DNA of 63,323 nt, filler included, from Lenisia limosa (taxonomy: Eukaryota; Protista; Breviatea), in the NCBI GenBank assembly GCA_001655205.1. It is 16 parts of 16 records of this genome, joined end to end, with 100 filler letters (N's around TTAATTAATTAA, not from the genome) between each part and the next. Parts side by side here need not be neighbours in the genome. Positions count along the whole stretch, not along the records: positions 1 to 7,984 come from LPNZ01009481.1; positions 8,085 to 10,620 come from LPNZ01009081.1; positions 10,721 to 18,658 come from LPNZ01001657.1; positions 18,759 to 21,803 come from LPNZ01006032.1; positions 21,904 to 26,081 come from LPNZ01008428.1; positions 26,182 to 28,176 come from LPNZ01008634.1; positions 28,277 to 37,615 come from LPNZ01000746.1; positions 37,716 to 38,844 come from LPNZ01003251.1; 8 more parts are not named here. One strand, given 5' to 3'. The notes beneath the pieces were generated by a model, which worked only from the letters and a program-made list of their open reading frames with translations, was not told where the DNA came from and searched no databases. Position 1 is the stretch's first letter. Every line of letters begins with the position of its first letter. This document shows, one piece after another, positions 126-63,323 of this stretch. A program made the translations under genes and the position numbers.

Positions 126-3100
126 ATGGACACAGCGTTTGATGCCATGGCCGAATTCCTTTCACCTTTATCCGTGTATGTGGGGGATTAATACTCCATG
201 TTGGAGATTCCTTTCATTCGGGGAATATTGGGGAATATGCCTGATATTCGCGCGTCCCTGTCCAGCACCTGAGTGTCAATAATATAACATTACTTACCTC
301 AATGATTATGGCTATTCCTATCACCTTTGTCGGATTTGAGGAATTTACACTCCATGTTGGGAGATTCCTTTCTTGTGTACTCGGGGAATATGCCTGACTT
401 TCCCTCACCCCTGTCCATTATCTCTCCTTTATATACCTGACTTTCCCTCACCCCTCTCCATTATATCGCCTTTTTCCGTTTATTTCGTAATTTTACTTGG
501 ATGTAAAAATATTGTATAACCATGATCAGAATTCTGATAACCTTTGTTGGCATATTTGGATTAATATGAGACGGGTAGGGCTTCATACAGGTACGAAAAA
601 GATCGCTCAACTGTCGAAATAGTATATCGATGGTTTATCGATCTTTGTGAAGCCCTAGGTATGAGACAACTTATCACTGATGGACAACATATCATGGATA
701 TGGGTAGGGCTTTACCGGTAAGAAAAAGATCGCTAAACTATCGAAATTGTGCAGTCTGATCCTGAGATCTCCAATTGACATTAACAGGTTAGTTACACCA
801 GATAATGTCTATGCTGCCACAACCCCTTTTTGGGTGTCTTCCTTCCCAGCTTTTTTGTAAGAGGGGGGGTGGTATATCTTCTTATTTCCATGTGGGAGCC
901 TTCTTATTTTGAAATAACGGGTGGCTGTTTTGGTTACTCCAATTTTTACCCCCCCCCCCCCCNNNNNNNNNNNNNNNNNNNNNNNNNNNNNNNNNNNNNN
1001 NNNNNNNNNNNNNNNNNNNNNNNNNNNNNNNNNNNNNNNNNNNNNNNNNNNNNNNNNNNNNNNNNNTCTGTTTTGACCTTTTACGGCTATTCTCGAAATC
1101 ACCTCTCTGAATCAGGAGCAATCTCTGCCTGGGTAGGGGGTCCTTTGGTGTTCATATTGGATCCTGTGTTACTTAGTTCAAATCAGTCAGCTTAATGTTA
1201 TACTAAATTCAAATCAATCAGCTGTATTTAGTTCAAATATGAGCTTTTTATTTTACCTGCAATAAGAAATAATCCTTCCAGATAGTAGGGTTCCTGACTA
1301 CCCTTTCTGGAGTTCCCTTTTTCGCCATTCTGCTGGTCTTCTTCATGTCTTCATCAATATTCTCCAAAGTGGGGGGGGGGGCGGTATCATTAATACTTCT
1401 CATTTCAACATCTGTATCATATGATATTATATTTTGGGCAATTATTTTCTGATAATATATTGTGTAGGAGATTAACTTTTTTGACAAGAGGAAGAATGTA
1501 TTATATCATTTATCATATACTATATATACATATTACATTAGAAATCTAGGGAACAAATAAATACATATCATATATGATGTGTAGAAAAAAAGCAATGAGA
1601 AATAAAATTAAGATGTATCTGGCCGAAGCCGTCCACACCACACTTATAAGAGATATTGGATTATAGTATAATATTAAATCACCCAAACATTTGCCTTACA
1701 ACTCTNNNNNNNNNNNNNNNNNNNNNNNNNNNNNNNNNNNNNNNNNNNNNNNNNNNNNNNNCTGCGTGCCTCCCCAACATGGGATACCATAAACAAATCA
1801 CCATACTCTTGCGCCCACACTCCTTGGCAGTAACTTACGATCAAGCTTGGCCTGACCAAACATGCCAAGGACCCTGAAAAAGGTTGGGGGATCCATATAG
1901 CTATATAGTATTAGGCTACTAAGAGATATTGGATGAAATATTGAGAGATGAGAAATAAAACAAGGATTATAGTATTAGTTCACCCCAACCAATTACTTGA
2001 AAAACTAGTGCACTCTGCTTTCTGTGTGCCTCCGCGGCATACTAATTCACCCGTTACCATCACATAATACAATGCTGCGGCTTTGGTTTGATGCCGTGGT
2101 TTTGATGCTTCGGTTTTTGATGCTGCAGTTTTGACTTTGTAGACAGCCGACGGACAATGAAAAACGTTCTTGCAAACGGATTTGTTCCTACATTGATCGC
2201 CGTGATCTGGAAAGCAGGAGGCACCATTGGGACTTACCCGGTCGATATGAACAGATTTCCAGTGCAGTCCTATCTCTTTCTNNNNNNNNNNNNNNNNNNN
2301 NNNNNNNNNNNNNNNNNNNNNNNNNNNNNNNNNNNNNNNNNNNNNNNNNNNNNNNNNNNNNNNNNNNNNNNNNNNNNNNNNNNNNTGAAGCTGTTCAAAT
2401 ATCATCATATCAACTTATTTGCATGAGAACTGTGTACACACTGCTTTTTCTCAGACCCCGCAATTTATACAGTGACCGGAATATGTTTTGACCGATTTGC
2501 TATGATTTTCCAAGAAAAATCGGTCAAGACTTATCCTGGTCACTGTACGTATAGCTATCCTTACACGCCCACCCCTTAATCTACACGTACCCCCATCTCT
2601 CTCCCCCACCCTTCCTTTATAAAACAAATTAAGTTGCAAGATGGAGTGTAAATGAGAAATAAGAAATAAGGTTGTATCTGGCCGAAGCAGCCCTTTATAT
2701 CTGGGCTTTGTTTGTTTTGTTGTTANNNNNNNNNNNNNNNNNNNNNNNNNNNNNNNNNNNNNNNNNNNNNNNATTTCATAAATTTTCCCATTTTACTCCC
2801 CTCAGGGCGTATTGCGCAGCATGTGGCGATACGTGGGCGTCGGAAGTTGGTGTATCTGACCCCTATAGCCCCCGCCTGGTCACAACCTGGAAAAAAGTGT
2901 GTTATATTTTTTTCGCAGTAGCCTTACTTTTTTCAACTGCCCCCTCATCCTTTTTTGCGTAGGAAGTAATCAGTAACCCATTTTCACCTCCGTTCACCCT
3001 GGACTTTTGTTGTTTTGTGTGTGCTGTCAACAGAGTTGATTTTGTCCTTTTTGTTTTGTTTCTTAAAGTGCCCAATTTCACCCCCTTTACCCTCCAGGTA

Positions 3101-4392
3101 CCGAAGGGCACCAACGGTGGCATGTCGGTTCTTGGTACTACAATGTCGCTGATGGGCGGCCTGTTTATTGGACTAGTAGCGTGGATTTCTATTCTTGGTA
3201 TGGGGTAATTTTGCTTAGATATTAGTAAGAAGGATAAAAAAACAAAGGAAACAGAAGAGAAGCAACCAAGTATTTATCTGCACCACGCATCTAACTTTTT
3301 AGCGAGTACTCCCGGAGCCATTTTAGAGGACGCTGCATCTCAATGGCCTTTAGTTATCATTGGGTGGGTTGGACTATAATATACTCGAAGTGATTTGGTG
3401 GGTTGGGCTATAATAATCCAATATCTCTCAGTGGTATGGACGGCTTCGGTCAGAAACAACCTTGTTTTATTTCTCATCTCTATAAGTAATCTTCGGGTGG
3501 AATATTACAAAAGATAGAATCAAACGAGAACTTAGGGATTTTTTGACCCTTTTTGTCTAATTTTGCTTCATGGTTGCACATGATATCTCTCAAGCGGGAA
3601 GAAATTTCTTTTTGAAAAAATTCTCTCTGAGGGGCTATCTTATGTTCTCAAACGTGGCATAGACGTTTTGAGCAATGTTTTCAGAACTGAATAGCAAGGT
3701 TTGGGAACCCGTTTTAGGAGTAACCGTCCACCCGCCACATTATTTCCAACCATACACACACACACACACAATAACCCTCCCAAGTTCGCTCCTCAGTCTC
3801 AGATGAATACAGGGGAATGGATTTCTGTATTTTTTACGTATTTCTTGCTGCCTCAGTACTAACCCTATTAGCGGAATAGCCGGGCTTGTTGGCTCGTTCA
3901 TTGACTCGATTTTGGGTGCGACACTGCAGTGGGTGGGAAATGAATACAAATCTGAAGGTCCATGGATATGGTATTCAGTGCTTCACTTCGGAGAAGCGAC
4001 TGGCTTGAGCTTTGGTTGTTTTGTTGTTCTCGTGTGTTAACAAACAGAGTTATTGTTTTTTTTTTGTATATTCCCAATTTGACCCCCTATATATATGATA
4101 TTCCCAATTTTACCCCCAAGATACTCGTGTTATGAGGCCGACAACGAGACGGAGTGGCAGGACAGCGACGACGTGGTAGTGTTTGAAGAGCCCGGCCCGG
4201 GTAGACGGCATATTTCAGGTGTCCAGCTCCTCAGCAACCATCAGGTACCTTGGGGGGAGGGGGTAAGAAGACACACATAAACAAAGTCACAATCCAAACA
4301 AGTCCCGTTCTAATTTCCAGGTAAACTTCTGTGCGATTCTTTTGACAGCAGCCCTGACTGGGGCCTTTGGGTTCGACGTTTTCTCCTACTAA
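126..4392 (+). CDS. TMEM19: TMEM19/DUF92 family membrane protein, about 10 exons, some partly in N gaps
   Basis: GT-AG exons translate to GYSRNHLSESGAISAW, KNVLANGFVPTLIA, AACGDTWASEVG..PRLVTTWKK|VPKGTNGGMS, GLVGSFIDSILGATLQ and LLSNHQ|VNFCAILL..FSY*, matching TMEM19 motifs. The ATG at 126 is inferred. Confidence 0.88.
576..657. mobile_element. Family A MITE (TAGGGCTTCA...TGAAGCCCTA); partial second copy at 705-750
   Basis: Terminal inverted repeats are visible, with the same core as about 19 other copies. Confidence 0.75.
1248..1487 (-). pseudogene. Possible LTR-retrotransposon pol 3' remnant inside a TMEM19 intron
   Basis: The ORF ends ERVVRNPTIWKDY, resembling the RRSxRxRxPPxWLxDY tail of LTR-element polyproteins. 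No catalytic motif is seen. Confidence 0.25.
1595..1668 (-). mobile_element. Family B dispersed repeat (~75 nt, GGC-TTCG-GCC hairpin)
   Basis: The reverse complement reads TACTATAATCCAATATCTCTTATAAGTGTGGTGTGGACGGCTTCGGCCAGATAC..TTTATTTCTCAT. At least 12 homologues occur in the window. Confidence 0.8.
2470..2545. mobile_element. Family C Tc1/mariner-type MITE
   Basis: TA|CAGTGACCGG...CTGGTCACTG|TA: a near-perfect palindrome with TA flanks. Confidence 0.8.
2701..2805 (+). mobile_element. Family D element forming the 3' end of a TMEM19 intron
   Basis: CTGGGCTTTGTTTGTTTTGTTG..(N)..TTTCATAAATTTTCCCATTTTACTCCCCTCAG, then the exon. Confidence 0.7.
2999..3097 (+). mobile_element. Family D element forming the 3' end of a TMEM19 intron
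   Basis: CTGGACTTTTGTTG..CAACAGAGTTGATTTT..CCCAATTTCACCCCC..CCAG, then exon VPKGTNGG. Confidence 0.75.
3408..3480 (+). mobile_element. Family B repeat
   Basis: CTATAATAATCCAATATCTCTC..GGACGGCTTCGGTCAGAAACAACCTTGTTTTATTTCTCATCTC. Confidence 0.8.
3991..4120 (+). mobile_element. Family D element ending at the intron AG
   Basis: GAGAAGCGACTGGCTTGAGC..AACAGAGTTATT..CCCAATTTTACCCCCAAG, then exon YSCYEAD. Confidence 0.75.
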
Positions 4393-4907: not shown

Positions 4908-7862
4908 TTAAAGAAGCCCCAGACTCTCCATTGTTAACGAAGTCAATCCGCCGACGCCGAAGATCACGCCGAAGAAAATCATGCAGTATGGCACGAAATG
5001 GCCCTTCTTCGGGAAGATTCGGATGTCTGGGGGGGGGGGAGNNNNNNNNNNNNNNNNNNNNNNNNNNNNNNNNNNNNNNNNNNNNNNNNNNNNNNNNNNN
5101 NNNNNNNNNNNNNNNNNNNNNNNNNNNNNNNNNNNNNNNNNNNNNNNNNNNNNNNNNNNNNNNNNNNNNNNNNNNNNNNNNNNNNACGCTAAAACTTGAC
5201 AAAAGCCAGATGACAAGAACACAAAACAAAAACAAGCCCGAGCCAGCCTTTGAAGAGTTCCACCACCGCTCGATCACCCAAACGTACCTTTAAGGCGTTA
5301 AAAAGTCAGGGAAATGTTTTTTTAAAAAAAATCCGACTTATTAACGGTCACAAGTCAAAGGTTACTTTAAAAAAATATTAAGCTGAGGGAAATATTAGCA
5401 CTAGGCTTCGAAAAAGCACCCCAAGTTAATCTTTGAACCTAGATATTGTGACAAACTTGGAGCATCAAGTAAAACTGGTAAATTTATGAAACAAAAACAA
5501 AACAAAACAAAAAAAACAAAAAAAAAAAAGTAANNNNNNNNNNNNNNNNNNNNNNNNNNNNNNNNNNNNNNNNNNNNNNNNNNNNNNNNNNNNNNNNNNN
5601 NNNNNNNNNNNNNNNNNNNNNNNNNNNNNNNNNNNNNNNNNNNNNNNNNNNNNNNNNNNNNNNNNNNNNNNNNNNNNNNNNNNNNNNNNNNNNNNNCGGA
5701 TATCTGGGAGTGAGATGGTTGGAAAGGATGTGATACGAATTTAGAGTGAAAACCACAGAAGATACTCCTCCCACTCCATCTTTGTGTACAGTCAGCCGCC
5801 GGATCTCTATGATCCTAGTTTCAATCGAGACTTTACTGCAAAAAAACACTCCACAGAAAATTGCCCTAAACAAGATAGTCCCCCCCCCCCCCCCNNNNNN
5901 NNNNNNNNNNNNNNNNNNNNNNNNNNNNNNNNNNNNNNNNNNNNNNNNNNNNNNNNNNNNNNNNNNNNNNNNNNNNNNNNNNNNNNNNNNNNNNNNNNNN
6001 NNNNNNNNNNNNNNNNNNNNNNNNNNNNNNNNNNNNNNNNNNNNNNNNNNNNNNNNNNNNNNNNNNNNNNNNNNNNNNNNNNNGTCAGTACTGTTTCAAC
6101 GTCTTTCGCGAAGTATGCAATTAACTGCCAGAGTAAAATTGACACGAGCGGGGAGGGGGGTGAATTGGAAAATTAAAACAAAACCTCACCGAGCAGAAGG
6201 CGACACCAAAGAACGTAATGAAGAAGCTCCGGGTTTTGGAGGAGTATGCTGTGGGACTGTAGCGCTTGCAGAACAGAAGCTCAATCTGGGGGGAGGGGGG
6301 TAAAATTGAAAAATTAATGAAACAAAAAAAGCCCAAAAAATCAACTCGGCTGACAAAACACAAGGGTTGATAACAACAAAACAANNNNNNNNNNNNNNNN
6401 NNNNNNNNNNNNNNNNNNNNNNNNNNNNNNNNNNNNNNNNNCAGTAGACCAAAGTAATCTGACTTACCTCCGAAAAAAAATGGTCAAAACTTAATACGGG
6501 GGTGTATACTGGGAGGTAGAGGGGCTATTGCCAAAAAGAAAGCATTCTTCCAACATTTCTTTACCTCATCACAATACGTCATTTTTAAGGCTTCCCAAAG
6601 GACCGAAAAAGACTGTCAAAATATTGAGATTTATCGAAGATTTTTCGAGAAGTCTTTTTTGGGCTGCTCCCCCCCCCCCCCNNNNNNNNNNNNNNNNNNN
6701 NNNNNNNNNNNNNNNNNNNNNNNNNNNNNNNNNNNNNNNNNNNNNAGAGGACAGTAACGGTCATGCCAAGTCGGGCCACAAGAATGAGAACGTCATCGGC
6801 ATCGTAGTTGTTGGCAAGGTTGCCTACAGTGTCAACAGGAAATACGGAGTGATTTGTCAGTATAAAAGATGAACCATAGTTGATAGTCAAGGGCTTCCCT
6901 ATGGTCCGAAAAAGACAAATATCGGTATTTATCGAAGAAAAATACCCCTAAAAGCGTCAAGACATTGGCGACTCAGACCAGATAGGTCATATTTGCATTT
7001 TTTTATGTGGGTAGAGAAATAAAAAAGGTGAAGTCGTTCACATCATCACACTAATAAGAGAGTGTAATATGGGCACAGAATCACGCTTATAAGAGAGCAA
7101 CATTGACACAGAATCACACTTATAAGAGAGTGTAATATGGGTGTTACACTGAAACCCTTGTCATACCCTCAGTTTCAACACCAAATGAAAGGTAACCAAC
7201 AAGAGCAGTTCCCTAAACAGTTAACGCGGGTGTTAGCCAAGGTGGGTGTAAAATTGGAAAATTTGTAAGAAAGAAAAAAAAAACTCTAACCAACTCTGTT
7301 GGCTGATAACACACAAGCGTTGATAACAACAAAACAAANNNNNNNNNNNNNNNNNNNNNNNNNNNNNNNNNNNNNNNNNNNNNNNNNNNNNNNNNNNNNN
7401 NNNNNNNNNNNNNNNNNNNNNNNNNNNNNAGTAAAATTGGAAGTGAAATAGAAAAGATAAAAAAAAAGAGGGGGGGGGTAAATTTATGAAACGAAAAGCC
7501 CGGTGGTTAAACTATTTAGAAAAACGCAAGGGTTTCAACTAACACAATATACAAAGATCAGGCTAGTCCCACAATCTAGTTTTTAATAAGAATTATTAAT
7601 AAATAAAAAAAACATGTAATTGATGCAACAGAATGAATCCCCAACATCACCATCCCAATGGCGCACCCATCATCCATCATACTAAGTAGATAAGAGCACA
7701 GAGGAAGAGAGACAAGTAAGAGACGCCCATCATCATCTTAGCCGTCCTCTTGGCGAGGGTTTCGTAGAGCTGGAGGGCGTTGAAATGGCACACGAATGCC
7801 ACGCCGATGATGGGGAAGGACTGGAGGAGCTTGATCGAGGGGTTGATGACCCAATCAACTTT
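4908..7862 (-). CDS. SLC38/AVT (AAAP) amino-acid transporter, 3' part, multi-exon
   Basis: Exons read SFPIIGVAFVCHFNALQLYETL, GYLSFGVETE|GNLANNYDADDVLILVARLGM, FFITFFGVAFCS|LIAYFAKDVETVL and CMIFFGVIFGVGGL..LL*. Confidence 0.85.
6286..6383 (-). mobile_element. Family D element ending at the intron AG of the transporter gene
   Basis: The reverse complement reads TTGTTATCAACCCTTGTGTTTTGTCAGCCGAGTTGATTTTTTGGGC..AATTTTACCCCCCTCCCCCCAG, then exon IELLFCK. Confidence 0.8.
7240..7560 (-). mobile_element. Two family D copies in one intron, separated by an N gap
   Basis: One copy has the CAGCCAACAGAGTTG core and AAATTTTCCAATTTTAC tail. The other is a more diverged copy with a CATAAATTTACCCCCCC tail. 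Confidence 0.65.
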
Positions 7863-8091: not shown

Positions 8092-10460
8092 ACTAAGCTT
8101 TTCGGGGAGTACGAGAATACGTCCATTCTTGTTGCTGATGAGGAGATGGATTGTCACAATAAGGACTATGTGGTGAGTGACTATCAAAGTTGATTTGGGC
8201 CTCTTTGTTTTTTGTTTTTTTTCCCCAATTAATTTTTCTCTCAGAGTTGATTTTGGGCCTTTTTTTTGTTTCATAGATTTTCCAACGCCAATATTTTCTT
8301 CATCGAAATTTTCTTCGTTTTACNNNNNNNNNNNNNNNNNNNNNNNNNNNNNNNNNNNNNNNNNNNNNNNNNNNNNNNNNNNNNNNNNNNNNNNNNNNNN
8401 NNNNNNNNNNNNNNNNNNNNNNNNNNNNNNNNNNNNNNNNNNNNNNNNNNNNNNNNNNNNNNNNNNNNNNNNNNNNGTTAAAATATCAATATTTATCGAG
8501 GATTTATCGAGAAATGCAGTATTTTTTGGGACCGTAGGGAAGCCCTACTCATCTCTACATATATGATATAAGGAGGATTTTGAAAACAGGTCGGATCCTC
8601 AACAAGTTAGTTACCTGTTTTGTCATACCAACTGCGTAAAAATGTCCAAACTATCGTCACTACAAAGAGAACCCAGTCGTTATGATGAAGCAAAAAAAGA
8701 TGTTCGATGACTGTTCTATCGGCTGACGTAAGAGTGTTCTCAGCTGATTGGATGTCGGTAATGTTGTGGGTGGATTGAGGTCCCAAATAAAGCCTCTGGG
8801 CATAGGCACTGTAGTTGCTAATCCCCCCAGAATGGAGCTGATGAATCCGGGTAGTAGCAAGATCACTTCTTGAAACATTGTTGAGGAGAGCGTTTTGAAG
8901 TCGTTAAGACGATTCTGAAGGTCATCGGCAAGGACCAGGTTTACGAAAGTGATGCCTCAAAATTTATAGAATTATGAGAATTTAATGCGAAACAATTGCT
9001 TCACTTCAATGTCACCAGAAGAAATGCGAGACAGTAACCAAACCTCATCATACGCGATAAATGTGGCTGGAAGGTTCCACTGTCGTTCTGGGATTCTCCA
9101 CGCACTGGGAAGACACACCCATAACTGCCGTAATTGTGGTGTTTGCCTCAAAAGAAGGACATGCATACCATTAATGAGTGCTTGATAAAAGAGTTACCAA
9201 TTCCTACCGTCCTTTTGAAAAATAAAAATCAAACGCGGTTACGCTGCGTGGTGCGGCAAGACTTAGCAAACCCCCAGTTCTCCTTTTCAGGGGAAGAGAC
9301 AGAAGCTACGCGCCACAAATAACAATGCGACCAAATTAATCTGATTACCGTTTGCATAATCCACCGTAGACTGTCAAAGATATCATTTCTCAATTTGCTT
9401 CAGACATTTTCCACTCTTTTTTTTACAACCATTTTTATGTTTGTCCAGATAGTTGTTGTCACCCCCCCCCCTAACCCTCGTATATTGCTAACCAACAGAG
9501 TTGATTTCTGGTTTATTNNNNNNNNNNNNNNNNNNNNNNNNNNNNNNNNNNNNNNNNNNNNNNNNNNNNNNNNNNNNNNNNNNNNNNNNNNNNNNNNNNN
9601 NNNNNNNNNNNNNNNNNCAGGAGACGCGGATATTTGTTATCACGTCGTTGCAAGTTCTGAAGTCTCTTTCGAGGGGTGGCAAGGCCTTTAGACAGCTCGT
9701 GTCTGCGGTTCTGCCTAGTATGATGCCCCTTGTGCTTCGCATGATGCAGGTTAGGTTTGGAATTATAGGTATGTGTATGATTCAGATGAGAGGTTGGAAT
9801 TAAAGGTGTGGGTCTGAGTGGGATTTGAGTATGTTTAGTGTAGGGGGGCTAACAAGGTATCATTTTTGCTTCCTTCGTGTAATTTAGGAGGGTATTTGGA
9901 TGATGCAGAATGGGGGGAGTATTCGACATTATTGAAACAAACATTTCAGACACTTTGATTTATTTTTGCCATTTGCTGCCGTGAAAGTATAACACAGAAC
10001 AGCATTGTATGGAGTGTTTGCACATTTTTCACGACAGCAAATGCAGGATTATCGAGCTGGACGCCCCCTGTTAACAAACTCCAGCTCTGTTGCGATGAAA
10101 TCGAGTCCGTCTCAGAAGAACCTAATCTCTTCCTGTCGCACGAGGACAACTACAATGTAACCGTCCGCGTTGAAGCTGCTAACTTCCTAGATGTTTGAGG
10201 GGTGTGAGCGGAGAGGAAATGGGAGTGTAATGGATTTGAGTTTTGCCTCAACTCTCATGTGTTNNNNNNNNNNNNNNNNNNNNNNNNNNNNNNNNNNNNN
10301 NNNNNNNNNNNNNNNNNNNNNNNNNNNNNNNNNNNNNNNNNNNNNNNNNNNNNNNNNNNNNNNNNNNNNNNNNNNNNNNNNNNNNNNNNNNNNNNNNNNN
10401 NNNNNNNNNNNNNNNNNNNTCCGATTGTCCTCAATAGCTTCAAGTCTTGTGTCGAGACAG
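8092..10460 (+). CDS. Unidentified multi-exon gene fragment, possibly HEAT/ARM-helical
   Basis: AG/GT-bounded open exons TKLFGEYENTSILVADEEMDCHNKDYV, ETRIFVITSLQVLKSLSRGG..LVLRMMQ and EPNLFLSHEDNYNVTVRVEAANFLD. The family is not recognised. Confidence 0.4.
8184..8323 (+). mobile_element. Family D element with a duplicated core
   Basis: AAAGTTGATTTGGGCC..TCAGAGTTGATTTTGGGCCTTTTTTTGTTTCATAGATTTTCCAA. Confidence 0.7.
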
Positions 10461-40184: not shown

Positions 40185-40269
40185 TTTTGTTTAGTTTCCT
40201 AAATTCCCTTTTTACAACAGAGTTGATTTGGGCTTTTTCATAAATTTTCTAATTTTACTCCCCCCCCCC
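40185..40269 (+). mobile_element. Family D element in a HAL intron
   Basis: CAACAGAGTTGATTTGGGCTTTTTCATAAATTTTCTAATTTTACTCCCCCC. Confidence 0.8.
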
Positions 40270-44124: not shown

Positions 44125-44819
44125 GTTGGTATTTGGGGGGGGGAGGTTATAGTTCGAGAAAATTGTCACGATATCCAAACACAAACTTACGGTGACGTCA
44201 TCTTTTTACAACTGTTTTCGAGAATTTAACTAACATTATATTCATTATAAAAATCATACTTTTTTTTGTTCTCTTATCTCAATAATAATTACTTTTAATA
44301 CACAAATCTATATCACACAAGTTAATACTCGTTTACGATTCTTTTTGTCCTTCGACGGAGCTAGATTTTGGAACTTTTACCTGCTTTAAGGAATTGGGGG
44401 TGGAGAGGTGTCTGCTTTGTTGCTCAACTGTCTTTGGATTCTAACCAGCAGAATTGATCTGGGCTTTTTTCGTTCCCAAAGTTNNNNNNNNNNNNNNNNN
44501 NNNNNNNNNNNNNNNNNNNNNNNNNNNTTAATTAATTAANNNNNNNNNNNNNNNNNNNNNNNNNNNNNNNNNNNNNNNNNNNNATCATAAATGACACGGT
44601 TTCTCATAAATGACACGGTTTCCGTGCAGCAGCATATTATATAATACTATATAATATGATATAAAAAAAAGCATACCCCCCACCCCCAATCCCTCCGCCC
44701 ACAGTTGGTAATCCATTTTGGGGAGATGAGAAACTCCTTGATCGGGTACCACTTGCCTAATAGAGTAAATGCGAGTCCATATATATATATATATATACCC
44801 TTCAAAGCACAATAAACAG

Positions 44820-50069: not shown

Positions 50070-53000
50070 CATCTTATTCTTCAGGCATCCCTTGAGTGTA
50101 CAATATGCAAGGTGTCTGTCAAGATTCTAGATGAGGAGATCAAGAACCATGCACCGAGAAAGGACATTATTCCATTGGTGGCAGCTGTGGGGGGTCTGGA
50201 TCATATTTTTCAGGTGATTTATTGAAAGTTTTCAAGGTTTGTCTCAAATTTCAATTTTGATATCAGAAATATCCCGGAACCATTTTAACAAACGAAATCA
50301 TAAGGCCTCGCATTATCAGCGGTGACCGGTTTAGCTTATGGAGTACCAGTATCCGAATATGCACCCAAAGTTCTACCAGGGTATGGCCGAGTCCTTCACA
50401 AACGAAGGCATTGAGATCTTCGAGGAGATTGCCTTGGATCCCGAAGGTATGTGACAGGTGGCAATGGGTTTCCCCGAACCAGGGGGCCCGGCGGCGTAAG
50501 GCCTGGAAGGCCTTTTCAAATAAAATTGTAATACCTGGATCGGGGAAGCAATGGGTCATTGCTTCACTTTTCTTTGGTTCAGTCCACAGTTTATTTGAAT
50601 TCAGAAGTTTGCGAGTTTCTGAAAATGTGTCCCAGAAAGGCAACTCTGGAGAAAAGCTATCCTTTGGGTCCTCCAATTAAACCCATTCCGGTGTGGGGGT
50701 ATATTAATGCAGTTTTCTAATCGTGAGTAAGCTGCTATCTTGGTTGGAAGTAGTAATGTGTAAGCTTTCACAGTAATTCTTTGGAGAGAAGAGTATTTCC
50801 CCCCCCCCCTTTTTGTGTGAAGGCAATTTTGGAAAGAAAATCTTTACTTTATTAGGAAGAAGAATATTTGGATGATCCCTCAACCTCCAATCTCTTCGTT
50901 GTTCAGCTCACTGACATTCATGTCGACCCTCTGTATCAAGTTGAGAGGTGTTTTGTGGCAGTTGTTGTCACCGATATTGGAGGAATTTGTCTTTTTTGAG
51001 TTACTGATAGGGCTTTACTCAGGTAAGAAAAAGACCAGTAAGTTATCGATAGTTTTCGAGGATTTGTCGAGAAATTCAGTCTTTTTTCGAACCGAAGTCA
51101 AAAGATGAATATTATTAGTTCCCACCATTCATTCATGTACTTTCATCTTAACAAGATCATGACACGCGACTAGCTTAGGTCTATCATTTAGACTTTATCA
51201 AATTAACATATTACTTTCAAAGATAGGAAAGCGTTCATCTTTCAAAGAAATTTCATGAAGTACTTACCACCATATTAGGAAGGCAGTGACGTCAGCTGCA
51301 GGTTCTCCATCTGTTGTCGAAACGAAACCAATGGCGAAGGGGACGGAACGCTTGCTGGTTACTGGGGCAGCAAGCCATGCGACTTACCACCGCGCTCTCT
51401 TGAGCTTTTAGTTGAGGTGATTGGGTAAGAATTAACTCGATAACTATTGTATGGGGCTCTGGTGTTCCAGTTTCTATATGCGTCCGTTCAAAATTCCTTT
51501 TTTTTTTTTACTAATTCCAGTTTTTTTTTTTTTTTTTTTTTCCTNNNNNNNNNNNNNNNNNNNNNNNNNNNNNNNNNNNNNNNNNNNNNNNNNNNNNNNN
51601 NCAATCTTGCATTAATGATATTTTTTTGAACACAATATCGAAATTGATACAGAAAAAATCAATGTTGCACCAAAAGTTAACAGCACAATATAGTTTTTTT
51701 GAAATAATGAACACAAATAATCAAACAATTACTTCACCTGCGCTCCTCTTCCCCTTCCTCTTCCTCTTCCACGAGTTATCGGTACTACAAAAGTAAGACA
51801 AGGTGGAGAACTAAACACCTACTTTAGATAGTTGGTGCATTCACATCGTTGTCAAAATATTCACAATCTAGAGATGAAAGGGGCTTTTTGAAAGTTGAGA
51901 TGGGAATATCAGGTTGAGTAGCACCTTCAGCTCCATGGTCTACAGGGGGAATATATTTGGCATATTTCGAAAGTGTAATTCTTTTCTTTTCAGTTAGAAA
52001 ACTTCATTCAAAACACCGTTTTCCACTCACTCCTGTTGATTCTGCAAGAGCCTTTTCCTCTTCATAACATGCCATCTCTGACACTATGCTCACTTAGAAG
52101 TAAAGCATCATACTCATCATAATTGAATTTATACCCCAAACAGAACTCAGAACGGATTCAGCGGCCGATTTTACGTTTATAAGGCTGTTTCTATTATTTT
52201 GCAAAAAAAAATGCTAAAAAATCGATATTAGGAGTTTCTTTTTATTTTATTTTTTGAAAAAAAATAAAAATCGGAATAAGTAAAAAAAAACCGGAATTTT
52301 GAACGGTCGCATATACTACGCTTTTGTTTCCCCGCTTCACCCCCCTCCCCTGAGCTAAATTTGTGCCTTTTTCTTTTGTTCTTTTTGTTTCTTAAATATC
52401 CAATTTTACCCCTCCCCCAAACTTAAACCCACCACCAGTCCGCAGCCCGCGAGGCCACCAAACTCATGACGCCAGGTGCCAAGGTGTACGTTGCCCTCAC
52501 CGGCGATAACTCCCCCCACGATGTCTGGAAATATGTGCGTGGTTAGAAATTTGTAGTCCTTTGTTGTCTTTGTTGTGTATTTTTTTTTTTTTTGTGCAAT
52601 ATTAATTCCTTTCTTACCACCCCCCTCTCCAGACGCAAAAGTCACAGTTGGAAGCCACCAGGCTTGTCGATACCACAGTTCTCAAGCATTTCTCTGGTAT
52701 ATTGGGGTCAAGCTTGACACTTGTGTTGCCAGGAAAGGGGCAGGTGAATTTGAGATATTCCACACAGCAGAAGAAGAAGTTCATTTTTCTGCAATCATTT
52801 TCACCATGTAATGTGTTTTCAAATACGAATTGAATCATACATAGTACTACATGTATTATCGACATAATATATGACTTAAGAACCACATGGGCATGCCTCA
52901 GTTTCCAGGAATCGCATCCGGAGTATTCCCTACATTTGGCAACCACGAATCGCTGCCCATTGACCAGTACAATCTGGCCTTTGACGAGACAAAGGCCTAC

Positions 53001-53629: not shown

Positions 53630-56345
53630 CATAACTTCATCGAATCCTCCATATTCCGTTTCAAGAGTTGTACCTTTACTCCAATGTTCTTCATTGAAAT
53701 CTCATTCGTTGACCCAAGCATGATTCCGGGCTTTTTGTTTCATACCCCTCCTCCTCCTCATCTTCTTCATTTTATCATTAACCCACCATTTCCTCCAAAC
53801 ATCCACCTACTGCTCCATAGGTTATGGACCTCTCGGGGTTGTCTGGCACCTTCGACCAGGCCTTAGCCCGATGGCGAACTGTACGGCAAACCTAAAATGT
53901 TATAATATATAAAAAATAATGAATGGAGGGTAGGAGGGTGGCAGAGGAGGAGTAATGCATTTGAAAGAAGGAATTTGAATGCCATTTAAGGGCCAACGGA
54001 ATAATAATACAGGTCTTAAAATACCAATTGAATAATAGTGTAGGTCTGATAATCAACTGAAGTATTGCTGTAAACCAAACTACCAAATCCACACCTCAGC
54101 ATCATGAATAAAACAACCAATCATAGAATTCATCACCCCCCTAGATTATTCAATCACTCAAGGACTTACAGTGACCATGGTAAATCATGATAGATTCTCC
54201 TTGGTGAAAATCGGTCAAGACTTATCCCCACTCCCCGACCTGAGCTGAAACCACTTCGCCAATGGAGAGGTCAAGACTCGCTAATCGGCTCCTACGAAGG
54301 GGGGTAATTATGATGATGATGACGATAATGATGATGATGGTGATGGTGATGATGATGGTGATGGTGATGATGATGATGGTGATAATGATGATGATGGTGA
54401 TGGTGATGATGATGGTGATGGTGATGATGATGATGGTGATGATGATGATGATGATTGATGCTGAAGAAGATTATGATAATGATGATGCTGAGGCTATTGT
54501 GGTGAAATAGGGTGGTAAAATATAGATGGGGGAAATTTTTTGAAACAAAAAAACAAATCTATTGGTGAGAAAAAAACAAGAGCAAGATAATCGCTTTCCA
54601 ATCAACCCCCCCCCCCCCNNNNNNNNNNNNNNNNNNNNNNNNNNNNNNNNNNNNNNNNNNNNNNNNNNNNNNNNNNNNNNNNNNNNNNNNNNNNNNNNNN
54701 NNNNNNNNNNNNNNNNNNNNNNNNNNNNNNNNNNNTTTCATTGCAGAGTGGAAGGAGCGTGAGTCTGATGACAAGTCCAAGTCTTGTAAGCTTGGGGGTG
54801 AGGGGGAAAGGCTATGATCTAAAAAAAAGCCCGAAGTTAACTATGTTGGCTGATAACACACATGGGTTGATAGCAACAAAACAAACAACGCTCAGGCCAG
54901 TCGCTTCTGTAGGAAAATTTTGCATTTGAAAACAAATAAGAGAGAGAGAGAGGGGGGGGGGTGAAAAATTTATGAAACAAANNNNNNNNNNNNNNNNNNN
55001 NNNNNNNNNNNNNNNNNNNNNNNNNNNNNNNNNNNNNNNNNNNNNNNNNNNNNNNNNNNNNNNNNNNNNNNNNNNNNNNNNNNNNNNNNNNNNNNNNNNN
55101 NNNNNNNNNNNNNNNNNNNNNNNNNNNNNNNNNNNNNNNNNNNNNNNNNNNNNNNNNNNNNNNNNNNNNNNNNNNNNNNNNNNNNNNNNNNNNNNNNNNN
55201 NNNNNNNNNNNNNNNNNNNNNNNNNNNNNNNNNNNNNNNNNNNNNNNNNNNNNNNNNNNNNNNTCATCTCCCCCAAGTATGGGAAACATGTTCAGTCCCC
55301 TGGAATATTATTAGTTGCATAAAAAGGGAAAATCTTCTCCCCCACGAAATATATGCATATATAAAAACGGACAACCACCTTCACAATATATATATATAAA
55401 AAAAAACGGACAACGATCGATATATAAAAACGGACAACGAAATATATATAAAAACGGACAACCCCCCTCCCTCCCACGACGCCACGCTGTGTCGCCCTGA
55501 AACCGGGGTAAACGTACGAGTCAAATCCTGCTTAGCCTAAAGCGTCAAGATAACGGGTTCAAATCCTGCTTAGCCTAAAGCGTCAAGATATTTAAGTTAA
55601 TTGCATTATATGGGAAATCCTCAAGAAAATTAACAAATCAGGGAATTTTCATAATAAGGGAAACTGATTAATATTGGGCATTCAGAATCGCTGGGTATGT
55701 GGTTTAAATTTGGAGAGTTCTTACTATGATTAATGAAATCCTTCAGAGTTACTCTGTTCAACATAAAGCGTATGTTGGAGGGGGAGGGGGGTAAAAAAAG
55801 GAAATTCATGAAACAAAAAAACACTGTCGGAGCAAATAACGATATTTGGGAGTTAGAGAAAAAGTTGTTAATATTTAGCTTGGCCTTCAGAGTGCCTCTA
55901 CCGCAAACCTTGAACAAAGTCGCGTGCCGGCCGCCGTCGGAAACAGCCGAGTTCTGAGTCCCGATGGCGATTGAAAACCGACGGCGCCTCGACCCTGACG
56001 AGGGCGGAGGGGCTATTGCGGGGCCTATAATCGTAAATGTCCGGGGAAAATAATATTACTAAACATGTTATTCAGCCATCATTTGCCCGAAGAAAACTAA
56101 AGAATACATAATTTTGAAGGAGTAGAATTGTAAAATTTATGAAGCAAAAAAGAACCCCAAAATCAATTATGTTGGCTTGCAACACACGAGGGTTGATAAC
56201 AACAACACAAACAAAGACCAGACCAGTTTTTTCTGCAACACCGCATCTCAAAACTCCTGTTTACTTACCTGGGGATGACGAGGCCGATTGGGAGGTTTTA
56301 CCATATGATGAAGAGGGACGAGGGGAGCGGGAAAGAACCTGAAAA
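53630..56345 (-). CDS. Unidentified Ser-rich multi-exon gene fragment
   Basis: Small AG/GT-bounded exons such as VLSRSPRPSSSYGKTSQSASSSP, DLDLSSDSRSFHSAMK and SRLASLDLSIGEVVSAQ. Confidence 0.35.
54310..54490. repeat. (GAT/GGT)n microsatellite
   Basis: About 180 bp of GATGATGGT triplets. Confidence 0.95.
54790..54981 (-). mobile_element. Two family D copies close together
   Basis: On the reverse strand, tail CATAAATTTTTCACCCC is followed by CAGAAGCGACTGGCCTGAGC..CAGCCAACATAGTT..GGGCTTTTT. Confidence 0.75.
56125..56250 (-). mobile_element. Near full-length family D element starting ~20 nt after a GTAAGT donor
   Basis: The reverse complement reads GATGCGGTGTTGCAGAA..TTGTTATCAACCCTCGTG..AGCCAACATAATTGATTTTGGGG..CATAAATTTTACAATTCTAC. 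Confidence 0.75.
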
Positions 56346-56705: not shown

Positions 56706-56850
56706 ACAAGGGTTGATAACAACAAACAAAGCCCAGGCTAGTCGCTTCTGCAGCACCGCATCCCACCACTCCGTAAAATTGGAAAATTTATGTAACAAAA
56801 AAGCCCATATCAAACTGTTGACATACTCACATAATATTCAGCAAAACAAC
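56706..56850 (-). mobile_element. Head-to-tail family D junction
   Basis: The reverse complement reads ..CATAAAATTTTCCAATTTTAC-GGAGTGGTG-GGATGCGGTGCTGCAGAAGCGACTAGCCTGGGCTTTG.. Confidence 0.75.
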
Positions 56851-57041
56851 CATATCACCATTTTGTCTTTTTCTTTAATATGATATAACGGAGGGGTTTA
56901 TGGTAATTAAGATTTCATCCCTAAATAAAGTCCAGACCAGTCGCATTGTATTATATTGGGGTAGGGCATATATGATCATATGACCGACTTTTGAGTCGAA
57001 ATAGATAAGACGAGGATTTAACCCGAGAGATTTGTCGTATC

Positions 57042-57790: not shown

Positions 57791-59299
57791 CTTTCTGGGG
57801 GGTGNNNNNNNNNNNNNNNNNNNNNNNNNNNNNNNNNNNNNNNNNNNNTTAATTAATTAANNNNNNNNNNNNNNNNNNNNNNNNNNNNNNNNNNNNNNNN
57901 NNNNCTGATATAAATGAATTAACACTTATTATCAGTTTCATGATGGTCATATCTGGCAATAGATATCTAGGCTGAGTTTGTTATAACGGATATCTTTCTG
58001 TTAACTAACATATACGTTTAACACTCTTTCAACTTGTTTTTAGATAAAGATTTATTGTTAAAGGTGCTGGAATCAGAAATCAGCTGCCTACCTAAGTGAA
58101 CACAATACGGCTTTAAACTGCTGAATGTCCAATGCTTTTGGCCCTAGTATTTGAGGGTGGAGGTGGAGTAATAAAGGAATGTGTTTCAAGAAGAGGAAGA
58201 TAGAAATTTGTGAAACAACAAAACAAAAAAAAAAACTCAACTCTACAGGTTAAGTGTTTGAGAAACACATGAGGGTTGCAATAACACGTGAAATAAATCA
58301 TGTATTTGCTGTCCAAAAAGTGAGAAAAAACGTATAAACAAAAATCATTGGTCAGGTGAATTGCTGAACCCTGTCTGGAGCACAGAATTCCTCTAGCAGG
58401 AGTTGCTATGTAAGCACATGCCATGAAACAAAAAGTTATTTTGTGAACAACCATAGTTAAATTGGTACTTTAAAACTTTAACAAATATATAACATGTCAT
58501 TTTATCCACACTGCGCTTGTGCTATTCCCAAAATATGGGGAAAGAGAAGAAAAGAAAAAATCGTGTGAAAGGGGAGGAGGAGGGGGGGGGGGGGGATGNN
58601 NNNNNNNNNNNNNNNNNNNNNNNNNNNNNNNNNNNNNNNNNNNNNNNNNNNNNNNNNNNNNNNNNNNNNNNNNNNNNNNNNNNNNNNNNAAGCAGGCAGA
58701 GAAGCTGCGGAAGTCGAACTATCCATATTCGGATGTTACATGCCCAACAAACCAGAAAAGAGGCGTGTAATGTCGCCTTGTCTGAAGTCATATAAACCAT
58801 CTTGACAGTCTTTAAGCCATCGGATCACCAAGGAGCTGACTTTAATCTTCACCCTTGCCACCTCGCTCCTGTATGCTGCGTCAAAAACCTCCAGTCCTGT
58901 CTCAACTTCCGTTGTGACATGTACTCTTGGTTGTTTTGAGGCCTGCGTCGTTAATACTGTTTTATACTAAACATTCACTAACCGATGAACCCATCTTTCA
59001 GCTAAAGGCTACCGTAAACGATTGGGAAATACTAAATTAGAGATGTTTATCATCCCAGAGAGGCCTATAATAATAACCTTTTGACGAAGAACATGCTGGT
59101 AATTCCGAGCCAGGTCTAATGAAACTACATTAGTTACAGTAATTACAATTAAACCCCTTTCAATTTTTTTTTCTGGACTTCACATCTTCACACAATCTTC
59201 TCACCTCTTCTGACAGAGGAGTTGGCTGAGGAGTTTGTAAGTATCATATTTGTTTGGCACTCTTTCAATATTCGATCCACCTACCTCTTTTGAAGGATC

Positions 59300-59850: not shown

Positions 59851-59888
59851 GGTGGGATATATATTCTCTGCCTCGGCCAGATACTAAC

Positions 59889-59988: not shown

Positions 59989-60599
59989 ATACTTTACTTA
60001 TTAACTTTTTAGGAGGAATTCGACAGTGCAAATAACAGTTAGCCTGGGGATGCATTCTACATGCTTGCTAGAAAACCGTTAATATCTCGAAAATAGCGAT
60101 TATTCTTTATGTGAGAGCCTTCTGCAGCACCGCATCCCATCAATCCAGCGGGGGGTAAAACATGATTTTTGAATTGAAAAAACAAAAGAGAGAAATAAAA
60201 ACATGAGAAAACACAAAGAAAACAGTTACCAACCAGTGAGTGATAGGGGGTATAGTGAAGGAAAGGAAAGGTACTAATAACGAATAAAAATGGATAATTT
60301 CTCAAAAAAAAAGCCAATCAACTCTGAAGTATTTATCTGTTGGTGATGGTGGGGGGGGGGGGGNNNNNNNNNNNNNNNNNNNNNNNNNNNNNNNNNNNNN
60401 NNNNNNNTTAATTAATTAANNNNNNNNNNNNNNNNNNNNNNNNNNNNNNNNNNNNNNNNNNNNATATATGTATAACATATATTATGATCATGTCAATGAT
60501 TACAAGTTGTTAATGAGTAAGGATTAGAGTATACTATATGACCCTATATGACCCCCCCCCTCCCCACACACACACTAGTGTATAAACACCCCCAACACT

Positions 60600-62372
60600 A
60601 GTGTATGACGTGGCACATGAACCTGCAGTTGTGGCGCATTGCGGAGACGCGCAGTCCACTGGAGAACAGCTGAAGGGTTAATATTGTAGATCATATAGCG
60701 TGATTATAATGGAATAATAAAGACTTAATTAATATATAAAATGTGTACAGAATGACGGGACTAATTACTAGGGCTTCACTTCGGTTCGAAAAAAGACTGA
60801 CTTTCTCGATAAATCCTTAAAAAGTAGTATCAATAATGTAACAGTATTTTTCGAACCGAATTTGAAGTCGGACCTATTGTAACGAGAACCCTGTGCTAGA
60901 CGCTTTAATTTCAAATTGTGTCAATTTTCTCAAAAAATTAATTGCGAGGAATCCTACTGTATATCCTTTAGGGCTGCACTTTCGGTTCCAAAAAAGACTG
61001 AATTGTCGATAAATCGTCGATAAATATCGATATTTTACAGGTGTTTCGGAACCGAAAGTGAAGCTCTTACATCCTGCCCACTAGTCTCCAGTGTACGCCG
61101 AACTGCTACAAATGAGTGCTTGGCTCTTACATTGGCCCTGGTAATGTAACAAATGCAAGAAGTGTAATGTAACAAATATAATGTATGTACATGTAATGTC
61201 TATCCCCAACATACATAAAAAAAACCATATATTAGAGTAATATAATAGTAGTATGTACATGTACATAGTATATAAATAGATGTACCCCCATGGAATCGTA
61301 TAACTACATGTATATACCCCCCACATGGAAGCATTTGCCATTAGAACGGGTGGTGCCGTCATCGCAACTCGTGCCGGATACCTTAAACATGCCTGGGGGG
61401 GGGGTAAAACGAAGGAAATCTCGATGAAGAATATTGGCGTAAAGGAAAAATGGGAAAATTTAGGAAACAAAAAACCCCAAATCAACTCTGTTAGCTNNNN
61501 NNNNNNNNNNNNNNNNNNNNNNNNNNNNNNNNNNNNNNNNNNNNNNNNNNNNNNNNNNNNNNNNNNNNNNNNNNNNNNNNNNNNNNNNNNNNNNNTGCCT
61601 GAGGTGTGGATACATAATACATATAATATATGTAATATTTGTGTTATATACATAGATATTATATGATTATCTGGCCAACGCCGTTCACCATCACAATATA
61701 AGAGATATTGGATTATAATAATAGTAATTCTCCCAATCATATAGCTAGTATATACTTAGTGCTTCACTTCGGTTCGAAAAAGACTCTCGATAAATCCTCG
61801 AAAACTATCGATATTTTACCAGTTTTTGTTCGAACTGAAGTGAAACCCTACATATATACTAAATAGGAAGGTTGAGTGTATGTGGGGTGGCTGGTATGGA
61901 CATGCCTACACTCNNNNNNNNNNNNNNNNNNNNNNNNNNNNNNNNNNNNNNNNNNNNNNNNNNNNNNNNNNNNNNNNNNNNNNNNNNNNNNNNNNNNNNN
62001 NNNNNNNNNNNNNNNNNNNNNNNNNNNNNNNNNNNNNNNNNNNATTGAGCTTCACTTCGGTTCGAAAAAGACCGGTAAAATACCGATAATTGTCGAAGAT
62101 TTATAGAGAAAATCAGTCTTTTTTTCGAACCCAAGTGAAGCCCTAGTGATACCCCACCACCCCCCAACATAGTTTTTTTTTTGTTTTGTTTTGAAAAATA
62201 ATATTTAGAGAAATAAAAAATGGCAATACCCTCCTCCCCTCCCACTTCTGCACAGGCCAGTCACGCCGTCACAGGTATCATCCATATCACATTGCACGTC
62301 CACGCCAGATGCTGAGCTGGCAAGGCAGACAGTGCCCTTGGATTTTGGCGTGCAGTTACTGTTGCAGCATGG
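60600..62372 (-). CDS. ADAM-like disintegrin plus Cys-rich protein, internal exons
   Basis: DPCCNSNCTPKSKGTVCL..QCDMDDTCDGVTGLC, FKVSGTSCDDG..KCFH|GQCKSQALIC and YCSPVDCASPQC. Confidence 0.7.
60969..61068. mobile_element. Family A MITE, subfamily A2, with a probable 8-bp TSD
   Basis: Flanks ATATCCTT and ACATCCTG match at 6/8; the TIRs are intact. Confidence 0.88.
61393..61496 (-). mobile_element. Family D element ending at the intron AG of the ADAM-like gene
   Basis: The reverse complement reads AACAGAGTTGATTTGGGG..AAATTTTCCCATTTT..GTTTTACCCCCCCCCCAG, then exon GMFKVSG. Confidence 0.75.
61757..61850. mobile_element. Family A MITE (others nearby at about 60769-60862, 62045-62145 and 62737-62828)
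   Basis: TAGTGCTTCACTTCGGTTCGAAAAAGAC...TTCGAACTGAAGTGAAACCCTA. Confidence 0.85.
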
Positions 62373-63323
62373 GTCGATATCTCTGGGGGGGGGGGGNNNN
62401 NNNNNNNNNNNNNNNNNNNNNNNNNNNNNNNNNNNNNNNNNNNNNNNNNNNNNNNNNNNNNNNNNNNNNNNNNNNNNNNNNNNNNNNNNNNNNNNNNNNN
62501 NNNNNNNNNNNNNNNNNNNNNNNNNNNNNNNNNNNNNNNNNNNNNNNNNNNNNNNNNNNNNNNNNNNNNNNNNNNNNNNNNNNNNNNNNNNNNNNNNNNN
62601 NNNNNNNNNNNNNNNNNNNNNNNNNNNNNNNNNNNNNNNNNNNNNNNNNNNNNNNNNNNNNNNNNNNNNNNNNNNNNNNNNNNNNNNNNNNNNNNNNNNN
62701 NNNNNNNNNNNNNNNNNNNNNNNNNNNNNNNNNNNNGGGCTTCAATTCGGTTCGAAAAAGATAGGTAAAATATCGATAGTTTTCGAGGATTTATAGAGAG
62801 ATTCAGTCTATTTTTTGAATCAGCCCTAACTACATCTCAAGTGTTTTATCTCCCTCAAGGAGTCTTTGAATATCTCCCCAAGCATTGACATTTATGGAAC
62901 CAAAGTGAGCCCCTAACCCCCCACAAGCAAGAGGACCCTGAAGTGAANNNNNNNNNNNNNNNNNNNNNNNNNNNNNNNNNNNNNNNNNNNNNNNNNNNNN
63001 NNNNNNNNNNNNNNNNNNNNNNNNNNNNNNNNNNNNNNNNNNNNNNNNNNNNNNNNNNNNNNNNNNNNNNNNNNNNNNNNNNNNNNNNNNNNNNNNNNNN
63101 NNNNNNNNNNNNNNNNNNNNNNNNNNNNNNNNNNNNNNNNNNNNNNNNNNNNNNNNNNNNNNNNNNNNNNNNNNNNNNNNNNNNNNNNNNNNNNNNNNNG
63201 GGAAATTTATGAATAAAGCCCAAAACCAATCATGTTAGCTGAAAACACAAAAGCGTTGATATAACTATATCACTATTTCTGTAATCACCATATGAACACC
63301 ATATGAACACCATATAAACACCA

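Follow-up and report, generated by a model that had tools for sequence, protein, structure and literature searches.

A dispersed intronic repeat of Lenisia limosa whose tail adjoins splice acceptors: a candidate mobile element entering existing introns

The window analysed here (63,323 nt of Lenisia limosa, assembly GCA_001655205.1, made of parts of 16 records joined with 100-N spacers) contains a dispersed intronic repeat of ~140 nt, family D, copies of which run into the acceptors of unrelated genes, and the question it raises is whether such a repeat creates introns or enters introns that are already there. The initial annotation, which had counted about 25 copies by eye, allowed for both: an introner-like, intron-generating element or a mobile 3' splice-site cassette.

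The repeat itself was confirmed. An nhmmer search of the window with a D profile gave 33 matches at E<1 and 27 at E<0.1, or 32 copies and fragments once 2699-2725 and 2774-2808 had been merged over an N gap (Table 1); the scores are inflated, the profile having been seeded from 21 of the copies found, and the profile held more tails than heads. Controls (the window reversed, and five locally shuffled versions) returned no match at E<0.1 and 0–3 at E<1, and an unseeded self-blastn of the window clustered 8 D copies (19 pairs, 74–89% identity). The genomic scale had been underestimated: DNA-run depth reached 87,246 at position 7307, within a D copy, versus 17–30 on single-copy contigs, which suggests that the genome carries thousands of copies. 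RNA depth at the same position was 26.8 (7,758 contigs aligned for DNA versus 21 for RNA), and poly(A) RNA contigs were almost free of D. A single DNA run was found for this genome, and it may be the one from which the assembly was made. Exact D patterns had no match in metagenome or viral contigs, and the profile had none in 87 fetched loci. Among the matches listed for an RPA2 exon, identities of 71–87% were spread over fungi, animals, algae and protists, and so pointed to no one lineage. The position counts given below all rest on this single 63-kb window, whose scaffolds are small and rich in repeats and whose gene models were drawn up by hand.

Table 1. Family D copies and related stretches in the window.
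Position	Strand	Feature	Basis
928..962	+	tail-like stretch and C-run into N gap before TMEM19 exon	weak, E=6; outside the 32
2699..2805	+	D body, N gap, tail; acceptor AG 2804-2805, TMEM19 intron, phase 2	profile, acceptor reading
2996..3097	+	5'-truncated D ending at acceptor 3097, intron 2897-3097	profile; RNA piece from 3098
3976..4120	+	D, tail duplicated, up to acceptor 4120 of intron 3929-4120	profile; RNA piece from 4121
5187..5260	-	D-related variant, different head, toward gap closing in C-run and AG at 5027	E=0.09; high DNA depth
5469..5497	-	tail fragment, SLC38-type gene	profile
6148..6180	-	tail fragment, ~9 nt past donor 6189	profile
6286..6384	-	copy ending in acceptor 6286, SLC38-type gene	profile; RNA piece ends 6285
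7241..7337	-	copy stopping 26 nt short of acceptor 7213 (own TTAAC)	profile
7476..7570	-	older D, stacked upstream of 7241..7337 in one intron	profile
8173..8323	+	two stacked partial copies straight after donor 8173; second has insertion-type tail, enters gap at TTTTAC	profile
9447..9515	+	D body into gap that closes at acceptor 9620	profile
18802..18889	-	antisense D, tail adjoining donor 18812 of + strand gene	profile, exon reading
40214..40269	+	tail and C-run at scaffold end, HAL-type gene	profile
43644..43766	+	internally duplicated D running into acceptor 43766 of intron 43600-43766	profile
44409..44483	+	copy cut off by scaffold end	profile
52378..52424	+	tail ~16 nt before acceptor 52438 (scored non-abutting)	profile
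53721..53744	+	weak antisense fragment downstream of donor 53806, - strand gene	E=0.8
54530..54585	-	degenerate D ~220 nt before acceptor 54292, CAT microsatellite between	profile
54791..54981	-	tail, (CT)n and near-full D, probable acceptor 54791	profile; acceptor from reading frame only
55774..55822	-	tail fragment, intron without clear acceptor	profile
56113..56258	-	sole full-length D (146 nt); donor 56268 lies 10 nt upstream, acceptor 56025 ~86 nt downstream	profile
56706..56825	-	two copies joined head-to-tail, kinesin intron	profile
56924..56944	-	short head fragment, kinesin intron shared with 56706..56825	profile
58197..58278	-	degenerate D ~50 nt before acceptor 58144	profile
60119..60326	-	two fragments (head after tail-like C-run; body), no clear host strand	profile
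61393..61498	-	D of the insertion subfamily, up to acceptor 61393, ADAM-like gene	profile
63200..63261	-	copy entering gap, ADAM-like gene	profile

Twenty-eight of the 32 copies lay in sense to the host gene, as had been claimed for all but one or two, versus two antisense (18802-18889 and the weak 24-nt match at 53721-53744); the remaining two (60119-60146 and 60286-60326) had no clear host strand. With the host strands of four genes set by manual exon reading, this bias was significant by copy (p=9e-7) and by host gene (10 of 11 genes, p=0.012). The polarity had been called unusual, and on strand it is less so, since 8 of the 10 F copies inside genes also have the pyrimidine-rich strand in sense (D vs F, p=0.26); the polarity of position is specific to D. 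Among the host gene names, DUF92/TMEM19, Aa_trans, kinesin, disintegrin and aromatic lyase were supported by Pfam, whereas the exons assigned to RABL6 and SMPD1 had no relevant Pfam match; these two names are therefore presumptive, and a RABL6 exon used as query found no homologue.

In 7 of the 12 introns with a visible acceptor, no more than 15 nt separated the end of the last D copy from the AG, compared with 0 of 10 for families A, F and E in the same test (Fisher p=0.005, or p=0.03 when an F copy before 53313 was included); in the other five it stopped ~16, 26, 50, 86 and 220 nt before a separate acceptor. All six tail-to-AG junctions named initially (2805, 3097, 4120, 6286, 43766 and 61393) were recovered, and 54791 is a seventh, so that D stands at 7 of 56 annotated acceptors (about one in eight) while 49 work without it. 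The D tail, TTTAC followed by a C-run, equals the native YTNAC motif at the native spacing: native acceptors carried YTNAY in 44 of 49 cases at a median of 9 nt from the intron end, and D-ended acceptors had the motif 8–15 nt from it. The 12 nt preceding the AG were richer in C at D-ended than at native acceptors (8.6 vs 3.7). Three of the D-ended acceptors are used in RNA, with contig pieces starting at 3098 and 4121 and ending at 6285, directly beside 3097, 4120 and 6286, and D is nearly absent from the RNA contigs, as is expected of splicing with element-borne or co-opted signals. The exon after acceptor 2805 matches DUF92 positions 115-147, and the spliced frame is open. The cassette version of the earlier proposal is therefore supported in so far as the tail offers a branch-point motif, at native spacing, before acceptors in real use. 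From motif and spacing, the TTTAC of the tail likely serves as the branch point. The AG is probably derived from the host, because in none of 10 non-terminal D tails did an AG come straight after a C-run. Native branch points left orphaned were not evident upstream of D-ended copies, bar an ambiguous case in intron 2897-3097. At acceptor 3097 the last TTTAC is possibly native, D's own tail being a TTCAC 12 nt farther upstream.

Introners, in the available text of the surveys of Gozashti et al. (10.1101/2022.06.06.494994; 10.1101/2024.06.04.597373), show similarity near both splice boundaries and create introns in exons, and the pipeline described there filters out secondary insertions. In our window, D similarity never spanned a whole intron or reached the donors, and among the 5' parts of D-containing introns only 3 of 55 pairs were similar at p<0.01, each with a piece of the family A MITE near the donor. 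At the places of the introns ending at 2805 and 3097, protein P0010 of another eukaryote has a read-through of 28 residues and a break-off, which is indirect evidence, from protein sequence, that its gene holds introns without D at these two D-ended TMEM19 positions. No credible intron was found at the three D-ended TMEM19 positions in any of 34 spliced-aligned relatives, which were top-scoring, intron-poor loci; these were drawn from 80 metagenome loci as likely genomic or representative (7 bacterial loci excluded; 135 relatives overall), and the aligner missed or misplaced two introns of the window itself. Among these relatives, a 22-nt intron call at the 3097 position (L040) looks artefactual, and another locus (L044) has an intron in the very codon of the 2805 site, though in a different phase. 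Taken together, the donors not reached, the 5 of 12 copies short of a separate acceptor, the stacks and the P0010 alignment do not bear out the introner version.

The structure of the copies was also compared with known classes of element. The head was missing at 21 of 27 gap-free 5' ends and the tail at 5 of 25 3' ends (p=7e-5); copies form head-to-tail stacks and fall into subfamilies with shared insertions. Truncated 5' ends together with a conserved simple-sequence 3' tail (the C-run) are features of SINEs and non-LTR elements. The terminal inverted repeats (TIRs) of MITEs were not found: three clear heads scored at background, the full-length copy had an end match of just 5–6 nt, and 1 of 8 5' ends exceeded 99% of background (p=0.01, not significant after correction), so the earlier statement that D has no TIRs largely holds. 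A reading of G-run donor and C-run acceptor as TIR remnants was rejected, since G-runs also mark long D-free introns. Non-autonomous Helitrons have a TC start, a subterminal hairpin and a CTRR end; sense-strand folds of D gave no stable terminal hairpin, and neither strand of the consensus had CTRR ends. Shared flank words around 11 copies were not above those of mismatched flanks, giving no sign of target-site duplication (TSD). No tRNA lay over D and no Rfam family matched at a meaningful score, so these searches lend no support to a snRNA, snoRNA or tRNA origin; the Pol III A/B box pattern was absent from two D heads, no conserved RNA fold was found (z -1.9 to +1.6), and no transposase, reverse transcriptase or transposon domain occurred in 191 (41+150) window segments searched for an autonomous partner. 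With no TSD, no tRNA, Rfam or Pol III match and no transposase or reverse transcriptase among these results, the route of mobilisation is without direct support.

The reading that we favour, at about an even chance, is that D is a non-autonomous mobile element that enters existing introns and, where it lands in the pre-acceptor spacer, supplies the branch point and uses the AG of the host; that D is mobile and that the introns are older than D are each likely. Copying would most likely begin at the 3' end of the element, as in target-primed retroposition, with the TTTAC-C(n) tail annealing either to a prior D tail or, at a native 3' end, to the C-rich spacer. Such copying would yield 5'-truncated, sense, head-to-tail copies, of which selection would then retain those with the pyrimidine-rich strand sense and no added AG, and later inserts (families A, E and F) would extend the upstream part of the intron. 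Truncation at the 5' end is, to the detriment of this reading, equally expected where selection retains just the tail. The lack of evident orphan branch points upstream of D-ended copies, and of credible introns at the three D-ended TMEM19 positions in the 34 relatives, also counts against it. With target introns of ~30 nt, spacer landing would be common by chance (7/12 at p=0.27, p=0.02). In a bolder form, which we regard as possible but doubtful, D is a mobile branch-point cassette guided to the 3' ends of introns by pairing between its tail and the native spacer, and thousands of old introns owe it their present constitutive 3' ends, a change that let introns of 30–60 nt grow long and repeat-filled, in a niche discarded by the both-ends filter of introner surveys.

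It is somewhat unlikely that D is instead an ordinary short intronic transposon without site preference that entered very short introns, with antisense copies purged, spacer landings tolerated on account of their own motif, and redundant native ends later lost by deletion. The strand bias shared with family F, the graded tail-to-AG distances (seven abutting, then ~16 to 220 nt) and the presence of 30-nt introns in these genes (41535-41564 and 42831-42860) all fit such an element; however, the near-majority-sequence copy at 6286, among the deepest bins, already adjoins the AG, five scaffolds totalling 24,100 bases hold no D yet 16 copies of A, F and E, and 7 abutting copies of 12 are more than landing at uniform positions would give (p=0.02 with introns of 30 nt, 1e-5 with introns of ~100 nt). 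We consider it improbable that D is an old introner, which once made up whole introns, with GT and a G-run at the start and a C-run and AG at the close, before deletion and later MITE insertion eroded their 5' halves: the 5' similarities come only through family A pieces, the sole full-length copy stops 86 nt before its acceptor, G-run donors are not peculiar to D-containing introns, and P0010 points to prior introns at two positions. The relatives lacking introns at the three TMEM19 positions would favour it, but those loci are intron-poor; an inverted tail-like 14-mer (43625-43639) upstream of the D copy at 43644..43766 and the introners bearing only a 3' splice site described in the available text of 10.1101/2022.06.06.494994 are also in its favour. 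Least probable, in our estimate, is that D does not move by itself, and that either gene conversion among the 3' ends of introns spreads it or the host retains it as a splicing element of its long introns. The restriction of D to long introns, the better-kept tail and the failure to find a TIR, TSD or partner in the window agree with this, but antisense and near-donor copies, tandem stacks and subfamilies with shared insertions fit insertion better, most annotated acceptors (49 of 56) work without D, and D has no conserved fold.

Should the favoured reading, of a mobile element entering existing introns, be correct, a selfish repeat would now serve in constitutive splicing at roughly one annotated acceptor in eight (7/56, in long-intron genes), without having added any introns. 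It would offer a testable path for intron lengthening and splice-signal turnover, and splicing is predicted to fail when D is removed from such an intron, so that the copy would be locked in; such elements would form a class that introner surveys, in their available text, exclude by design.

SINEs and non-autonomous Helitrons have 5'-truncated copies, a simple-sequence tail and tandem arrays, and no TIR. D resembles them in all of these, but searches of D for a TSD, a tRNA head, Pol III boxes and a hairpin with CTRR end were negative. A literature search, sparse on subscription journals and without the bioRxiv supplements that catalogue introner families, gave no account of such an element. 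In the available text of PMC2592719, intronic Alu insertions are described as free of strand bias, with new exons arising from antisense copies; D is similar to Alu-derived splice acceptors in that a short repeat gives 3' splice signals in a single orientation, but is strand-biased and lies at the intron end before ordinary coding exons. With the fungal introner-like elements, as the accessible part of 10.1101/2022.06.06.494994 presents them, D shares the lack of TIRs and TSDs, a strong gene bias and a proposed RNA route, although those are whole introns and D is part of one. Like introners as far as these sources describe them, D is a repeated intron sequence in unrelated genes, apparently in thousands of copies, and some introner families also bear the 3' splice site; unlike them, D spans one end or the interior of the intron, forms tandem stacks and occupies introns that seem to predate it.

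The dispersed intronic repeat D, about 140 nt long with a tail of TTTAC and a C-run, is a real repeat. A profile seeded with 21 copies gave 33 hits in the window at E<1, of which 27 had E<0.1; the corresponding counts in the controls, one reversal and five local shuffles of the window, were 0–3 and 0. As the seeds score themselves, an additional self-BLASTN was run without seeds, which grouped 8 copies with identities of 74–89%. Merging two hits across a gap left 32 copies or fragments, which bears out the roughly 25 dispersed copies counted in the initial annotation. When a DNA run (X1) was placed on 1–7984, depth at one D position was 87,246 compared with 17–30 for single-copy contigs, a ratio of ~3,000 that indicates order of magnitude only, since summed contig depth does not equal copy number and X1 is possibly the assembly's own source. 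A poly(A) RNA run (X2) supplied 21 contigs matching 1–7984 versus 7,758 from X1, with a depth of 26.8 at the same D position, and D is therefore near-absent from mRNA contigs. Depth over a D-related variant (table) was ~20,000 at 5217–5259 and ~500 farther out, and one RNA contig continued to an A-rich end at 5304.

Coordinates of D copies, other repeat families and additional features (window positions)
Feature	Position	Strand	Description
Full-length D copy	56113-56258	minus	146 nt
D subfamily	8285-8323, 61393-61447, 40370-40383		~45-nt insert directly before final TTTTAC; at 40370-40383 only 13 nt visible (scaffold edge)
D-related variant	5186-5403		head longer and different
Family A	e.g. 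60969-61067, 59888-59988, 57041-57125, 39988-40080		~100 nt, MITE-like, long terminal inverted repeats, ~19 copies
Family F	1595-1667, 3413-3478, 18973-19046, 36469-36544, others		~77 nt, asymmetric, 18 hits
Family E	2466-2548, 36605-36703, 37362-37445, 37516-37603		~85 nt, inverted-repeat, TA-CAGTG ends
RNA polymerase I second-largest subunit gene	47576-49820
Gene with signal-peptide-like start	59300-60042	plus	3' end not readable
Intronic open frames	8600-9400		~800 nt, several frames
CAT/CAC microsatellite expansions	54311-54491, 42655-42712		within introns

The window comprises 16 small, spacer-joined scaffolds interrupted by N gaps, and its genes, modelled by hand, have GT-AG introns of 30 to ~1,000 nt. 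Only distant relatives of the TMEM19 and RPA2 exons were found; the TMEM19 frame is open over 281 residues in an exon chain with 12 hidden bases, and the RNA-piece record coordinates agree. Many N gaps within scaffolds have an edge in D or at a homopolymer of C or G, some conceal short exons, and further acceptors ending in D are probably hidden at gaps (5027, 47832, 62383). The intronic open frames at 8600–9400, for which no relevant Pfam match was found, could be the remains of a transposon or a gene nested within the intron.

Acceptors whose 3' end could be read were tabulated by hand (56, not exhaustive, the short-intron scaffold 10721–18658 being mostly left out), and seven had the last D copy within 15 nt of the AG: 2805, 3097, 4120, 6286, 43766, 54791 and 61393. 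All but 54791, a further and probable case, had been proposed in the initial annotation as D tails running into the AG and are upheld, with RNA pieces beginning at 3098 and 4121 and one ending at 6285. The seven carry TTTAC or CTCAC at 8–15 nt (the final TTTAC at 3097 may be native) and are richer in C than acceptors without D (8.6 versus 3.7 in 12 nt); a YTNAY motif occurs in 44 of the 49 acceptors without D, its median distance to the end of the intron being 9 nt. The last D of five further introns stops ~16, 26, 50, 86 and 220 nt short of the acceptor. D thus abuts the acceptor in 7/12 introns, a count that excludes the intron of copy 55774–55822 (acceptor unresolved) and copies entering gaps or scaffold ends, versus 0/10 for families A, F and E (p=0.005; p=0.03 if an F copy ending 15 nt before acceptor 53313, to which it may lend a CTCAT motif, is included). 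A C-run followed directly by AG was seen in none of ten non-terminal D tails, and some AG within 15 nt in two, and thus the AG is probably the host's or has been purged from internal copies. D quite probably has a cassette role at intron 3' ends, its tail likely supplying the branch point. Separately, three acceptors in two genes share a CTTACCA..TATTAG ending (19069–19081, 19233–19245, 51263–51278), possibly a second shared 3'-end unit, and long introns frequently open with GT and a G-run (GGGG within 20 nt in 12/37 introns longer than 70 nt and 0/10 shorter ones), which may be an intronic enhancer or a pairing partner of 3' C-runs.

An introner origin, also suggested initially, was not borne out. 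As given in part of 10.1101/2022.06.06.494994, introners show similarity to near both splice boundaries and secondary insertions are filtered out; here 5' intron parts were similar in 3/55 pairs (p<0.01), involving introns in which a fragment of family A lies close to the donor, the full-length D begins 10 nt after the donor and stops 86 nt before the acceptor, and copies are stacked head to tail (56706–56825, 54791–54981, 8173–8323). The evidence on intron age is indirect and mixed. P0010, a protein related to TMEM19, has a 28-residue insert directly before a YACCNGDTW motif and breaks off past TTWKKV, at the two sites where the window has its introns with acceptors 2805 and 3097, which would point to introns older than D; judged from the protein sequence, and with ascertainment possible through a query that included intron flanks, it appears to be a gene call reading through introns. 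On the other side, spliced alignment of 34 relatives gave no convincing intron at any of the three TMEM19 positions that end in D, but these loci are the best-scoring ones and poor in introns.

The strand polarity described for D was recovered in our own gene models (28 sense, 2 antisense, 2 unresolved, four host strands being without Pfam support; p=9e-7 per copy, 10/11 host genes, p=0.012), but it is not peculiar to D: the pyrimidine-rich strand of family F, one of three families profiled as a control and comparable to D in DNA depth, is sense in 8/10 in-gene copies, which does not differ significantly from D, so that the bias may reflect a filter of general effect on repeats here. Five scaffolds, 24,100 bases in all, carry 16 A, F or E copies but no D. 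Family E lies mainly on the AT-rich scaffold 28277–37615 and resembles a Tc1/mariner-type MITE; four family A copies are located 14–38 nt past a donor.

No target site duplications were found in 11 D copies, and terminal inverted repeats, reported as absent from the outset, were suggested at 1/8 ends tested, not convincingly; tRNA, Rfam and Pol III searches gave no match, no stable RNA fold was obtained and no partner element was found in the window. Heads are missing in 21/27 copies versus tails in 5/25, and native spacers frequently carry YTNAC-CC, which agrees with the D tail over a few bases. From these we tentatively infer, at somewhat less than even likelihood, that D would be copied from its 3' end by annealing at C-rich spacers or older D tails. 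An antisense copy whose tail adjoins the GT-G-run donor 18812, equivalent to C-run-AG on the opposite strand, fits strand-blind targeting. The main rival explanation is untargeted insertion of D into very short introns, with selection sorting the copies.

On the features tested, D does not belong to the introners, MITEs, SINEs or Helitrons. According to part of 10.1101/2024.06.04.597373, introners are known from many transposon classes and ~72% of elements are unclassified. At the level of search listings, no description of a repeat taking over constitutive 3' ends was found in the literature. D is a real, abundant and polarised intronic element, which works in like manner to the 3' half of an introner and to the Alu-donated acceptor, as the latter is presented in part of PMC2592719.
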